From Nanopusillaceae archaeon (GTDB lineage: Archaea; Nanobdellota; Nanobdellia; Nanobdellales; Nanobdellaceae): a DNA stretch of 32,000 bases. Made by a program: the position numbers and the translations under genes. The stretch spans positions 30,001 through 62,000 of the forward strand of contig JBMFJD010000001.1 in NCBI GenBank assembly GCA_049974095.1, read 5' to 3'. Shown in pieces: positions 18,564 to 20,664 of the stretch. The notes beneath the pieces are model-generated. The model made no database searches. It was not told the origin of the DNA and worked only from the letters and a program-made list of their open reading frames with translations. Each line of letters opens with the position of its first letter. Within the stretch, counting starts at the first letter, position 1.

Positions 18564-19604
18564 ATGGAAAGCGTAAGGGAAAATATAAGGAGGATACTGA
18601 TTGAGGAATATTTAAGAAAGAATAAAGATCCATTTGAAAGTATAGTTGGACAGGAGGATACTAAAAGACAAATTATTGCTTCTTTGATTTCTGGAAGAAA
18701 TATATTAATTATCGGACCACCTGGAACTGGAAAAACTACTATTGCAAAAAATATAGCATCTTTATTACCTACCATAGATTTTCCAGAAGAGATTCCATTG
18801 TGGGCATATCCAGAATTTCCTTTTGTTTCTGATGAATATAGAAAAAAGTGGGAAACTGGTCCTTTTATAAAATTAGAAGGAGAAAAAAGATTTATTAGAA
18901 TACAAGGATCTTATGATTTATCTATAGAAGATCTAATTGGAGATATAGATCCTTCAAAAGCATTAAAATATGGTATACATTCTTTAGAATCATTTATACC
19001 TGGAAAAATATTTAGAGCCCAACATGGAGTATTATTCTTTGATGAATTAAATAGAGCTCCTCCAAAAGTACAGAATACATTATTAGAATTATTAGAAGAA
19101 AAGAAAATAACAATTGGATCATATGAATTTCAAATACCTTTAGATATAATTTTTGTTGCCACAATGAATCCAGAAAGTTATTATGGAACAGAAAAATTAT
19201 CCGATGTATTATTAGATAGATTTGATGCAATTTATTTGAATTATCCAAAAGATATTGAAGAAGAAAAGAAAATAATATTTAAATATGGAAAAAACCTTAA
19301 TATAAATTTCCCAGAAAAATTAATTGATTTGTTCTTGGAATATATACAAGAATTAAGGAAAGATGATAGATTGGAAAAGAAACCCTCTGTTAGATCTAGT
19401 ATTGGAATATATGAAAAAGCACAAGCATTAGCAATAATTGATAAAAAAGAAAATGTTGAATTACAGCATATATTTGAAGCATTACTATCAATTTTACCAA
19501 ATAGAATAAGATTAAAGCCATCATATAGAATGGAAATGAAAGAGGAAGATTTTATTAAAAATACATGGAATTCTTTTATAATAGGAAAAGGCTTTCGGAG
19601 TTGA
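18564..19604 (+). CDS. AAA+ ATPase, ChlI / MoxR-like
   Basis: FESIVGQEDTKRQII...NILIIGPPGTGKTTIAKNIASLLP (Walker A), GVLFFDELNRAPPKVQNTLLELLEE (Walker B / sensor region), FVATMNPE, LLDRFD. Confidence 0.85.
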   Translation: MESVRENIRRILIEEYLRKNKDPFESIVGQEDTKRQIIASLISGRNILIIGPPGTGKTTIAKNIASLLPTIDFPEEIPLWAYPEFPFVSDEYRKKWETGPFIKLEGEKRFIRIQGSYDLSIEDLIGDIDPSKALKYGIHSLESFIPGKIFRAQHGVLFFDELNRAPPKVQNTLLELLEEKKITIGSYEFQIPLDIIFVATMNPESYYGTEKLSDVLLDRFDAIYLNYPKDIEEEKKIIFKYGKNLNINFPEKLIDLFLEYIQELRKDDRLEKKPSVRSSIGIYEKAQALAIIDKKENVELQHIFEALLSILPNRIRLKPSYRMEMKEEDFIKNTWNSFIIGKGFRS

Positions 19605-20664
19605 GGTAGAAAATTATATTAAAAGACAAGGAAGTACTTTTAAGGAAGAAAAAAGAAAAAGTGAAAATGCAATATATGAACTTGTAGATAATTTAATAAG
19701 GGAAGGATATCCAATATTTGATATTGATAAATATATAGAAAATAGAGAAAAATATTCAAAATTATTATCAAAATTAACAGATTTTGATGAAAAAAGGATA
19801 AAAGAAGATAAAGATGAAAGATTTAAAAAAGAATTAAAAAAAGCATTAAATAAAGTAAAAGAAATATTAATAAAAGAAGGATATTTAGATGAGAATGAAG
19901 AAATAAAAGAAAAAAGTTTAAGATTATATTCTAAAGAAATAATAGGAAATATTGAAAGAGATATATCTGGAATATTTGAATATGGAAAATATAAGTCAAA
20001 TATTATTGGAAATGATGAAGAATTTTATAAGAAATATTTTAGTATTGGAGATAAATATTCAAAAATAGATCCAAAAGAAACAATAAAGAAATACATAAAA
20101 TTTGGAGAGATAAGATTTATTATAGAAGAAAAAAGAGAAAATAAAGGTGGAAGATATATTGTATTACTGGATGTATCTGGAAGTATGATTGGAGAAAAAA
20201 TATTTGAAGCAAAAAAGGCATTATTAATATTAACTGAAAAAATATTGGAAGATCATAATTTATTAGATATTATTTTATTCAATGATAAGATATTAAAAGA
20301 ATATAAAAATGTAAAAGGATTTGAAGATATAATTGATATATTAAAAATAATACCAAATGGAAGTACAGATATTTCTATGGTTTTAAACTATATTTTAAAT
20401 AATGTTGAAGAAAATTCACATATAATATTAATAACTGATGCTTTACCAACTTCTGGAGAAGAACCTGTTCAAAGAACATTGGAAGCTGCAAGAAAATTGG
20501 GAAATATTTGTTATATTTCAATAATAGGAATACAATTAAATAAAGAAGGAGAAGAAATTGCAAAATATATTGTAAAATATGGAAATGGTAGATTATTTAT
20601 TGTTAAAAATTTAGAAGATTTGAAAAAAGTTATATTGATAGAATATGAATTGTCTAAACAATAG
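19594..20664 (+). CDS. vWA (MIDAS) domain protein. The frame is open from 19585 with no ATG/GTG/TTG until 20185. It is probably expressed as a +1 frameshift fusion to the upstream AAA+ ORF, giving a ChlD-like architecture
   Basis: The MIDAS DxSxS motif (YIVLLDVSGSM) straddles the first ATG, so translation must begin upstream. Downstream vWA T and D positions (NGSTDIS, ILITDALPTSGE) are present. 200 stop-free codons precede the first ATG. Confidence 0.65.
   Translation, partial: FGVEVENYIKRQGSTFKEEKRKSENAIYELVDNLIREGYPIFDIDKYIENREKYSKLLSKLTDFDEKRIKEDKDERFKKELKKALNKVKEILIKEGYLDENEEIKEKSLRLYSKEIIGNIERDISGIFEYGKYKSNIIGNDEEFYKKYFSIGDKYSKIDPKETIKKYIKFGEIRFIIEEKRENKGGRYIVLLDVSGSMIGEKIFEAKKALLILTEKILEDHNLLDIILFNDKILKEYKNVKGFEDIIDILKIIPNGSTDISMVLNYILNNVEENSHIILITDALPTSGEEPVQRTLEAARKLGNICYISIIGIQLNKEGEEIAKYIVKYGNGRLFIVKNLEDLKKVILIEYELSKQ

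Follow-up and report, generated by a model that had tools for sequence, protein, structure and literature searches.

Probable programmed +1 frameshifting at a rare CGG codon in a ChlI/ChlD-like ATPase-vWA gene of nanoarchaea

Frameshifted genes of the Mg-chelatase or chlD type (fs-chlD) are already known, and for some of them reporter assays in E. coli have confirmed the shift (PMC3711429; PMC9227772). Standard decoding of an fs-chlD gene yields the small subunit and frameshifting the ChlD-like medium subunit; archaeal members occur in Methanocaldococcus and Methanococcus (PMC3711429). Genes of this type with a +1 shift are also mentioned (PMC9227772). The first-pass annotation of the locus described here, made from its sequence, had put it forward as a frameshift candidate, which the comparative data below support, although frameshifted chlD-type genes as such are not new (PMC3711429; PMC9227772). 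Like fs-chlD, the locus combines a ChlI-like AAA+ ORF with a second, downstream ORF that overlaps it in another frame and encodes a linker and a von Willebrand factor A (vWA) domain; it has fused single-ORF homologues, and has been annotated as two adjacent genes. In contrast to the described and tested fs-chlD genes, which shift by -1 at A_AAA_AAR or poly-A with downstream structures, it would shift by +1 at a rare CGG codon, with neither a slippery run nor a structure. With such a shift, the gene would add a new form to the chlD-type genes known to be frameshifted.

Other relevant systems are the +1 cassette of bacterial prfB (release factor 2), AGGGGG-UAU-CUU-UGA-C, and the yeast elements Ty1 (CUU-AGG-C) and Ty3 (GCG-AGU-U), which undergo +1 frameshifting at a 'hungry codon', the Ty1 type by P-site re-pairing. 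With prfB, the locus shares the +1 direction. It reads GGAAAAGGC, however, so that the Shine-Dalgarno (SD)-like element is gone, as is the anti-SD of the 16S rRNA; the stop is not adjacent but two codons downstream, a rare sense codon is in its place, and autoregulation by a release factor is not implied. As in Ty1 and Ty3, a rare and presumably slowly decoded Arg codon is found, here with its cognate tRNA apparently absent by gene search, and as in Ty3, P-site re-pairing appears to be unneeded, the site reading CGG-AGU-U; it differs from them in belonging to another domain of life and in the codon used, CGG. A helix-2-insert AAA+ protein beside a MIDAS-bearing vWA partner is also typical of RavA-ViaA, CoxD-CoxE, NorQ-NorD and CbbQ-CbbO, but in these MoxR-type pairs each partner is a separate protein translated from a start of its own, while here the ATPase is closer to ChlI/BchI and a fusion is proposed.

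The window, meaning the whole stretch of 32,000 nt that was analysed, is part of contig JBMFJD010000001.1 (assembly GCA_049974095.1), from a metagenome-derived genome (G000) of 764 kb in 48 contigs that is 93% complete. Its host is a hot-spring nanoarchaeon of a lineage with a G+C content of 25%. The features of the locus are listed in Table 1.

Table 1. Features of the ATPase-vWA locus in window coordinates.
Feature	Position	Strand	Basis
AAA+ ORF in the 0 frame, 346 aa, product of standard decoding	18564-19604	+	ORF listing, profile matches
TAG closing the +1 frame upstream	19582-19584	+	sequence
Candidate shift site TTT CGG AGT	19593-19601	+	invariant TTY-CGG-AGT in relatives
0-frame stop TGA	19602-19604	+	sequence
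Linker in the +1 frame, 191 codons, without start codon	19597-20169	+	protein conserved across the family
vWA domain in the +1 frame, stop codon 20662-20664	20170-20664	+	MIDAS motif, profile matches

The AAA+ ORF ends with ATA GGA AAA GGC TTT CGG AGT TGA. Since a TAG lies in the +1 frame at 19582 and the TGA at 19602, any change of frame is confined to 17 nt, 19585-19601. From 19585 to 20664 the +1 frame then runs through 359 codons without a stop, which at the local base composition has a probability of ~1e-15. Its first ATG, GTG or TTG is found at 20185, after 200 start-less codons (probability ~1e-4 at the same composition), the longest leader of this kind in the entire 764-kb genome. This ATG encodes the M of ..LLDVSGSM.., and the MIDAS motif D-x-S-x-S (DVSGS) occupies 20170-20184. 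With CGG as the vacant A-site codon, the ribosome would skip the C at 19596, giving a conceptual product of 699 aa with the predicted junction ..IIGKGF|GVEVENYIK... The first-pass annotation had described the end of the AAA+ ORF with both flanking stops, with which the sequence agrees in all details, and a 200-codon start-less stretch ending at the MIDAS methionine, which translation and the ORF listing confirm; its view that so long an open frame is improbable by chance is borne out by the estimate for the 359 codons.

The observed layout and its conservation, the selection acting on either part, the scarcity of CGG and the parallel cases make it probable that programmed +1 ribosomal frameshifting allows one gene to be read in two frames, producing both a free ATPase and a fused ATPase-vWA protein of 699 aa. 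Translation would begin at ATG 18564, and the trigger of the shift would be the CGG codon. Some ribosomes would read CGG slowly in frame and terminate at the TGA two codons on, releasing a 346-aa ChlI-like ATPase, and others would advance by one base at TTT-CGG-AGT and continue through the linker and the vWA domain to a 699-aa ChlD-like protein. The ratio of the products would be set by the efficiency of the shift, and the two proteins would presumably form rings in the manner of ChlI and ChlD.

The first ORF matches the Pfam families AAA_5, Mg_chelatase and AAA_lid_2, and also AAA_3 and bpMoxR. It encodes a complete ChlI/BchI-like AAA+ module with a Walker A motif (GPPGTGKT) and an AAA lid, whose nearest solved relatives are ChlI (8osf, 6l8d) and BchI (1g8p). 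For the second frame, the matching families are VWA, VWA_2 and VWA_CoxE. Profile searches against ChlD/BchD and MoxR-associated vWA families remained below every cut-off: the BchD/ChlD model TIGR02031 reached 42.2 bits (cut-off 499.55) and covered the AAA+ part only, while the equivalog models of ViaA and RavA scored 29.4 bits (cut-off 500) and 29.5 bits (cut-off 681), respectively. A CobN/ChlH large subunit (PF02514) was not found in the 93% complete genome, with positive controls, and unlike fs-chlD hosts, this host provides no context of a tetrapyrrole pathway. Of the initial comparison with ChlD/BchD, the ChlI/ChlD-like domain architecture stands; the low TIGR02031 score and the missing CobN/ChlH speak against an assignment to that family. 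The start-less part of the second frame is under purifying selection, with dN/dS across the family of 0.10-0.37 for the linker compared to 0.06-0.27 for the vWA domain, and residues of the MIDAS motif and others of the vWA domain do not vary among relatives.

An alignment of orthologous loci shows that the two-frame layout and TTY-CGG-AGT are kept in all 13 family genomes (YN1, Nanopusillus, Nanobsidianus and Nanobdella), including three closed ones; of 17 metagenome contigs, 16 share them. A Logan contig from an independent assembly matches over 19300-19658 with zero gaps. The 0-frame stop lies 2, 3 or 5 codons past the CGG in relatives, at 3-5 codons in Nanobdella and one further genome (G015). 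Runs in the overlap do not exceed AAAA or TTT and differ between relatives (GGCAAAGG, GGAAAGGAC). The codon before CGG is mostly UUU, which permits re-pairing with UUC and thus the slip of tRNA-Phe first suggested for this site. In two lineages, YN1 and L182, the site is UUC-CGG, and a slip from UUC to UCC does not re-pair. Slippage of tRNA-Phe, although feasible in most genomes, consequently does not appear to be an essential feature, given these two lineages and the varied codons preceding CGG in the cysteinyl-tRNA synthetase (CysRS) gene described below. Neither the single-sequence fold of the site (z = -0.16) nor the alignment fold (-2.6 kcal/mol, no covariation) points to a stimulatory RNA structure, and the proposed shift would involve neither a structure nor an SD-like stimulator.

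In the long ORFs of G000, CGG accounts for 12-14 of ~205,000-216,000 codons, mostly in spurious ORFs over rRNA and tRNA genes; its frequency is ~0.03-0.06 per 1000 codons in G000 and the closed genome G001, and the closed relative YN1 has 7 in 213,717 codons. Arg is encoded by AGA or AGG in 98% of cases, so that the rarity of CGG noted at the outset from a few ORFs extends to G000 and YN1. ARAGORN detected no credible gene for tRNA-Arg(CCG) in G000 or G001; its absence is not proven, as the program also missed tRNA-Tyr and the initiator tRNA. A relaxed 'Arg(ccg)' match in G001 contains a 263-nt intron and was judged spurious. With apparently no cognate tRNA, CGG must be read by wobble. A search for quadruplet-decoding tRNAs gave none with an 8-nt anticodon loop; position 37 is A in tRNA-Gly(UCC) and G in tRNA-Arg(UCG), and tRNA-Gly(GCC) has an unusual U there. 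In arginine decarboxylase, CGG-AGT forms the in-frame codons 4-5 in 10 of 11 genomes, and a few internal in-frame CGGs are present in the lineage. The fact that these are decoded indicates that CGG does not force a shift.

Two ways in which CGG might act can be envisaged. It may be a 'hungry' A-site codon, where the abundant Gly-tRNA would take the overlapping GGA, with a junction ..GF|GV... CGG itself could instead be the P-site codon, weakly paired with tRNA-Arg(UCG), the situation in the ancestral cassette where a stop follows CGG, which would place the junction at ..GFR|VE... We lean towards the A-site reading.

Homologues outside the family were compared as well. In a sister family the gene is a single fused ORF, of 722 aa in G019 (P0003); a second fused homologue, P0004, has 721 aa. 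The G019 fusion reads ..KGFGSE.. where the window reads KGF|GVE and has one C fewer, exactly the one that would be skipped. Such fused forms surfaced only with a natural fusion as the query; with the vWA frame as the query, no longer homologues were obtained. Among deeper homologue loci, the vWA frame is at +1 in 80 of 82. Two relatives, L017 (G020) and L069, have A9-A10 at the junction and a -1 layout. At 72 Woesearchaeota-type loci the AAA+ ORF ends with GGTGAT-NNN-(CGG/CCC/GGG/CCG/CTT/GCG)-stop-C. These six codons make up 5.6% of the codons in the respective genes but 71 of the 72 last sense codons, and the C follows the stop in 59 of the 72. Both the 72 distant loci and G023, which has a 16S rRNA ending with GGAUCACCUCCU, carry the SD-like element 3 nt before the shift codon. 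Distant Nanoarchaeota loci thus resemble prfB in the +1 direction, an SD-like GGUGAU complementary to the 16S 3' end, the distance of 3 nt, a shift-prone codon including CUU, the stop and the C. Judged by sequence comparison, one gene shows what appear to be four solutions: a +1 cassette resembling that of prfB, a +1 shift that depends on CGG, a -1 shift at poly-A, and fusion.

The main competing explanation is that of two separate overlapping genes, with the vWA frame initiated independently, at TTG, at a non-canonical codon or by termination-reinitiation, and no fusion protein being made. It could invoke the TTG found straight after the +1-frame stop in 7 of the 13 family genomes and 10 of the 16 metagenome contigs, the public annotation of YN1 as two overlapping genes, and the GTG or ATG located 14 or 11 nt upstream of the ATPase stop in ~67 of the 72 Woesearchaeota-type loci, which is used by gene callers. 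Yet the presence of TTG or TAG at the head of the +1 frame merely mirrors a synonymous change, ATT-GGN or ATA-GGN, in the ATPase frame. In family genomes lacking this TTG, the first start is found 11-200 codons into the +1 frame: the window is start-less for 200 codons and five other genomes (L005, L007, L009, L012, L013) for 11-39, but the protein is conserved from ..FGV.. onward and under purifying selection. A canonical vWA start is therefore not conserved among the orthologues. The lineage has also lost the 16S anti-SD (3' end GGAUCUAGUU, without CACCUCC), SD motifs are absent, and its genes look leaderless, which makes an internal start without a start codon implausible. Separate genes would further leave unexplained the invariance of a nearly unused codon, the existence of the fused ORF, and the limitation of the last sense codon in distant loci to shift-prone codons and not to an amino acid. 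Overall, we consider independent initiation unlikely.

Much less probable is a correction at the RNA level, where polymerase slippage or editing would drop one base and ribosomes would read a continuous ORF. Transcriptional slippage is conceivable at the A9-A10 junctions of L017 and L069, and known Methanocaldococcus cases also have long A runs (PMC3711429). In the window, by contrast, the 17-nt overlap holds nothing beyond AAAA or TTT, the runs vary between relatives while TTY-CGG-AGT does not, and the CysRS sites are free of runs. A decaying pseudogene with a vWA part that is no longer expressed would fit reduced symbiont genomes with split or truncated genes, such as the 89-aa Dph2 fragment at 17402-17671, but is very improbable here, as the 359-codon frame is open in every genome despite 25% G+C and both the dN/dS values and the invariant vWA residues point to a constrained protein. 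A sequencing or assembly indel in a truly continuous ORF, for which the fragmented metagenomic assembly and the short A and T runs of the interval could be cited, has a negligible chance of being correct, because the same frame change recurs at the same place in the 13 genomes, which stem from different studies, in the 16 contigs and in the gap-free Logan contig.

In favor of frameshifting at CGG, an unrelated gene shows a similar arrangement. In CysRS, an ATG is in frame with a CGG located 2-4 codons downstream, and the enzyme itself, HIGH motif included, is encoded at +1. Such a layout was found in 14 family genomes, 7 of which have no in-frame start for at least 95 codons, and CysRS in Nanopusillaceae thus appears to need the skip of the C at CGG, too. 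The codon before CGG is AAU, UCC, UCU, UAU or GUC. Genome-wide, an ATG followed within 0-5 codons by CGG and then a long +1 frame was not enriched over control codons; most matches lie inside ORFs, which makes this count uninformative, and only sites that lie at ORF 5' ends, have a TATA-like box and are conserved in relatives were regarded as meaningful. For N. acidilobi, a frameshift in the gene of ribosomal protein S14 has been reported (bioRxiv 10.1101/2021.01.31.429008); the G000 gene is one intact ORF without CGG. ProRS in the window (14108) has an ordinary start and no CGG leader. A broader reading would be that the nearly unassigned CGG has become a dedicated recoding and regulatory signal in Nanopusillaceae, causing +1 shifts in several unrelated genes, namely the AAA+-vWA gene, CysRS, a prephenate-dehydratase-like gene of YN1 and possibly IleRS, SerRS and AspRS-type genes, which have short leaders of the form ATG-x(1-4)-CGG, and replacing the ancestral prfB-like cassette, conserved across Nanoarchaeota, after the family lost its 16S anti-SD; taken jointly, these propositions stand in our estimation at even chances.

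The frameshifts that reviews up to 2021 list for Archaea are all either -1 events or inferred for viruses (PMC8211752, PMC5009743). Conserved programmed +1 frameshifting of cellular genes in Archaea would close this gap. Should the broader reading of CGG hold, these genes would be the first cellular ones in Archaea with programmed +1 frameshifts, with a visible hand-over between two mechanisms. The site is simple, consisting of a rare sense codon without structure or SD element, and it recurs in the essential gene CysRS. Annotation pipelines split or truncate such genes, as seen in the two genes of YN1 and in CysRS without a legal start. Cultivated carriers (N. acidilobi, Nanobdella aerobiophila, YN1) would permit direct testing. 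The change of mechanism, linked to the loss of the anti-SD, would represent a natural experiment in the evolution of recoding signals under extreme A+T pressure and tRNA loss.

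In the archaeal source genome (764 kb in 48 contigs, 24.9% G+C), the ORF of a ChlI-like AAA+ ATPase overlaps a second frame at +1, which encodes a linker and a vWA domain. The window covers positions 30001-62000 of contig C1. The first-pass annotation was correct in all its factual statements on this layout, i.e. the ATPase stop, the upstream TAG closing the +1 frame, and an earliest ATG, GTG or TTG at 20185 that is the M within LLDVSGSM of the MIDAS motif. The 200 start-less codons it described were also confirmed, and the open stretch comprises 359 codons in total. Computed from the local base composition, the probability of 359 stop-free codons is ~1e-15 and that of 200 codons without a start codon ~1e-4; the start-less leader is the longest anywhere in the genome. 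Pfam assigns AAA_5, Mg_chelatase and AAA_lid_2 to the ATPase, whose closest solved structures are ChlI and BchI, and VWA, VWA_2 and VWA_CoxE to residues 159-349 of the second frame. The suggested likeness of the joint product to ChlD/BchD holds for the architecture but not for family membership, as TIGR02031 (ChlD/BchD) reaches 42 bits where the cut-off is 499.55 and CobN/ChlH was not found in the source genome, which is 93% complete. By analogy, the ATPase-vWA protein may act in a MoxR-type remodelling or metal-insertion system.

Positions of the features discussed, in the window unless a genome or contig is named
Feature	Location	Strand	Remarks
ATPase ORF, frame 0	18564-19604	+	346 aa; from the ORF listing
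TAG closing the +1 frame upstream	19582-19584	+	
Stop TGA of frame 0	19602-19604	+	junction ATA GGA AAA GGC TTT CGG AGT TGA
16S rRNA	3597-5088	+	
16S rRNA 3' end	5070-5095		ends ..GGAUCUAGUUUAAUCUCC, without the canonical CACCUCC anti-SD; likewise in L187, L188 and YN1
23S rRNA	11050-13984	-	
RNase P RNA	15789-16023	-	abuts the ProRS ORF end
89-aa ORF	17402-17671	+	Dph2 profile match to the first 58 of ~300 positions only
Small membrane ORF	17668-17889		follows the 89-aa ORF
CysRS	source genome, C5:5905-7348	+	outside the window
Arginine decarboxylase	source genome, C2:67881-68366		loci L143, L189-L198
tRNA-Gly(GCC)	source genome, C5:51639-51709	-	
Four CGG-leader genes	source genome, C1 (leader at reverse-strand 17333; ORF C1:92932-96162)	-	loci of these genes: L208-L211, L214-L239
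	C15:6770		
	C18, ORF 3-1334	-	
	C7, ORF 9759-10700	-	
Prephenate-dehydratase-like gene	YN1, 364664-365460	+	next in-frame start 84 codons on

Elsewhere in the window, the 16S and 23S rRNA genes are not linked: they are encoded on opposite strands, and protein genes lie in the roughly 6 kb that separates them. Their G+C content is about 45-57% versus 25% for the genome. The Dph2-like and membrane ORFs are arranged in the same way in YN1, a closed relative; the former may be a split or truncated gene.

A six-frame search over 41 related genomes detected the vWA frame in 11 of 12 other same-genus genomes and in one further genus of the family. In each family genome with a match it is open for 356-364 codons, and in none is it fused. 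The junctions extracted from 13 genomes, three of them closed, all have the vWA frame at +1, an invariant TTY-CGG-AGT and an overlap of 17-26 nt, so that both the layout and the proposed shift site are conserved throughout. These genomes include Nanoarchaeota archaeon YN1 (closed, 85% identical), Candidatus Nanopusillus spp., Ca. Nanobsidianus stetteri and Nanobdella aerobiophila MJ1 (closed). The identical junction occurs in 16 of 17 metagenome contigs from hot springs, and a Logan contig, assembled independently from hot-spring sequencing, spans 19300-19658 gap-free; a sequencing or assembly error is thereby ruled out. Metagenome contig Ga0074075_13232 (L179) carries an extra T ~25 nt 3' of the junction (..TTAATTAAATAG..); the vWA frame is closed by this base, which may be a sequencing error or mark a broken copy. 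A pseudogene is likewise ruled out: across eight pairs (Nei-Gojobori), dN/dS is 0.10-0.37 for the start-less linker versus 0.03-0.19 for the ATPase and 0.06-0.27 for the vWA domain, and conservation in the protein alignment begins right at the junction, from ..FGV.. onward.

Separate translation of the vWA frame from a start of its own would correspond to the public annotation of YN1, where two genes (345 and 358 aa) overlap. In 7 of the 13 genomes the +1 frame indeed opens with TAA-TTG; this TTG is simply what ATT-GGN of the ATPase frame gives in the +1 frame, and with the synonymous ATA, as in the window, the same place reads TAG, while another lineage uses GTC. In the remaining genomes the first start codon lies 11, 34, 36, 37, 39 or 200 codons into the frame. 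Hence no start is conserved among the 13 genomes, and the protein alignment of the vWA frames has no conserved Met column. Genes of the source genome have a T/A-rich, TATA-like box at -30 to -23 of the ATG and no G enrichment or SD signal at -12 to -5, which is the pattern of leaderless mRNAs. The 16S 3' end reads ..GGAUCUAGUU.. in the source genome, YN1, G004 and Nanobdella, in place of ..GGAUCACCUCCU, which the related genomes G020 and G023 keep. With the anti-SD lost, no SD signal and the leaderless pattern, SD-dependent internal initiation is not available.

The shift site proposed in the first pass contains a codon that, as suspected there, is nearly unused. CGG makes up 12-14 of about 205,000-216,000 long-ORF codons in the source genome, most of them in spurious ORFs over rRNA or tRNA, and 7 of 213,717 codons in YN1 (three over a tRNA); AGU, GGA and UUU are common codons. 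The ARAGORN tRNA-Arg set of both genomes consists of GCG, UCG, UCU and CCU, and no credible tRNA-Arg(CCG) was found in either, with detection being incomplete, since the default run also misses tRNA-Tyr and the initiator tRNA. The sole CCG match of a relaxed run has a 263-nt intron and is implausible. Folding analyses found no RNA structure 3' of the shift site. After the proposed shift, ribosomes would enter a GGN codon, which tRNA-Gly reads; a purine at position 37 of the anticodon loop is the rule, and tRNA-Gly(GCC) is predicted to have a pyrimidine (U) there.

CGG does not force a shift. In 10 of 11 family genomes, codons 4-5 of pyruvoyl-dependent arginine decarboxylase are CGG-AGU, read in frame (the other genome has TGG). 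The codon can therefore be decoded, in keeping with a split between two products at the ATPase site. Here a rare Arg codon heads an arginine-consuming enzyme.

A natural fusion supports the junction. In G019, a sister-family genome labelled Woesearchaeota MAG, both parts lie in one 722-aa ORF, and a protein collection holds a second fused homologue, 78% identical to it. The G019 junction, ..E-K-G-F-G-S-E.. (AAA GGG TTT GGT TCT GAA), differs from its window counterpart (AAA GGC TTT C GGA GTT GAG) by exactly the C of the CGG.

A deeper survey of genome collections yielded 82 loci, most of which carry a Woesearchaeota or Nanoarchaeota label; the vWA frame is at +1 in 80, fused in one and at -1 in one (L069, A10 run). 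A further -1 case is the closed genome G020 (L017, A9 run). The poly-A junctions of L017 and L069 are of the published Mg-chelatase frameshift type.

The 72 +1 loci from outside the Nanopusillaceae (among L016, L018-L022, L032-L102) share a conserved 16-nt end of the ATPase ORF, GGTGAT-NNN-(CGG/CCC/GGG/CCG/CTT/GCG)-stop-C. Conservation is 1.2-1.9 bits over the hexamer at -12 to -7 from the stop and about 0.8-1.35 bits at the last sense codon and at the base that follows the stop, versus 0.0-0.4 bits at most flanking positions (0.6-0.95 at a few). The hexamer, GGTGAT in 31 loci and GGTGGT in 15, is complementary to AUCACC of the 16S 3' end; its 3-nt spacer to the last sense codon is constant in 72/72, and C follows the stop in 59. 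That codon is CGG in 34 loci, CCC in 20, GGG in 7, CCG in 5, CTT in 3 and GCG in 2. These six make up 5.6% of codons in those genes (CGG 2.0 and CCC 3.1 per 1000) versus 71 of 72 last codons; Pro is never CCA/CCT and Arg never AGA/AGG, indicating that selection acts on codons and not on amino acids. The architecture is that of the bacterial prfB site, AGGGGG-UAU-CUU-UGA-C, and CCC-UGA and CUU-UGA are +1-prone sites. Gene callers take the GTG within GGTGAT as the vWA start. In some loci the hexamer is GGCGAA, GGAGAA, GAGGAT or GGCGAG, in L044 just 2 nt separate the opening of the +1 frame from the stop, and in L032 and L078 about 58 codons pass without a start. A prfB-like frameshift cassette in these distant loci is likely but not proven.

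The second-longest genuine start-less leader of the source genome belongs to CysRS, whose enzyme frame has no start codon over 110 codons, HIGH motif included. An ATG in the -1 frame, with a TATA-like box at the usual distance upstream, reads ATG GAT AAA AAC TCC CGG TGC; with the C skipped, it translates as M-D-K-N-S-G-A-I-Y-I-Y-N-T-L-T.., an N-terminus normal for CysRS. In 14 family genomes (among loci L142, L144-L157) 2-4 codons separate the ATG from a CGG; the two share a frame in every case, and the enzyme frame, at +1, is never that of the ATG. The enzyme frame is start-less over at least 95 codons in 7 of the 14, and in several loci it is closed by a stop overlapping the ATG. CGG is absent from CysRS in genus g3 (G014), which has an ordinary in-frame ATG, and in G019, where the start is likely an in-frame TTG two codons on. 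As the codon before the CysRS CGG varies (AAU, UCC, UCU, UAU or GUC), re-pairing of the P-site tRNA is apparently not required; the UUU to UUC slip proposed for the ATPase site has its UUU in the window, but need not be the mechanism. A third case was found in YN1, in a prephenate-dehydratase-like gene without a detected orthologue in the source genome: ATG GAT CGG TTC.., with the enzyme frame at +1.

ATG-x(1-4)-CGG leaders with the ORF at +1 precede four further genes of the source genome (IleRS-like, SerRS, AspRS-type and a catalytic-only class II paralogue), all with a TATA-like box upstream of the ATG. The leader is kept in 8/8 family genomes for SerRS and in 11/12 for the AspRS type, and both are absent from G019. 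In all four genes the ORF has an ATG of its own 1-3 codons past the CGG and could be translated even without a shift. That such leaders are concentrated in aminoacyl-tRNA synthetases suggests that they are regulatory.

Mg-chelatase/chlD genes with a frameshift have been described before, also from Archaea (PMC3711429, PMC9227772), and +1 cases receive a mention but no particulars (PMC3711429, PMC9227772 and its supplement). Reviews contain no +1 frameshift in a cellular archaeal gene, frameshifts in complete Nanobdellota genomes serve a 2026 preprint solely as a measure of assembly quality, and our literature search found the CGG site, the CysRS case and the prfB-like cassette nowhere described.

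Taken from the sequences, the conserved layout, the invariant CGG, the natural fusion and the CysRS parallel support a programmed +1 frameshift in the window. If CGG is a vacant A-site codon, the junction would be F|G-V; in favour of this are that CGG is so rare, that the codon before it varies, and that the natural fusion has a G there. With CGG in the P site it would be F-R|V, as favoured by homology with the CGG-stop cassette. The gene family may need, or tolerate, both a ChlI-like ATPase and a ChlD-like ATPase-vWA protein, with four apparent lineage-specific solutions: -1 slippage on A runs, a published type (PMC3711429, PMC5009743), the prfB-like +1 cassette, fusion, and +1 at CGG in the Nanopusillaceae. 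In the latter, loss of the anti-SD would have made an SD-like stimulator unworkable, extreme A+T pressure would have left CGG nearly unassigned, and the stop would have drifted downstream; it now lies 2-5 codons 3' of CGG, with TTY-CGG-AGT unchanged. Synonymous sites of the family are near saturation at the deepest splits. That the frameshift has persisted for so long, when losing one base would be enough to join the frames, speaks for selection on the two-product or regulated arrangement itself. The CGG-linked phenomenon would be broader than the ATPase-vWA gene, and lineage-wide.
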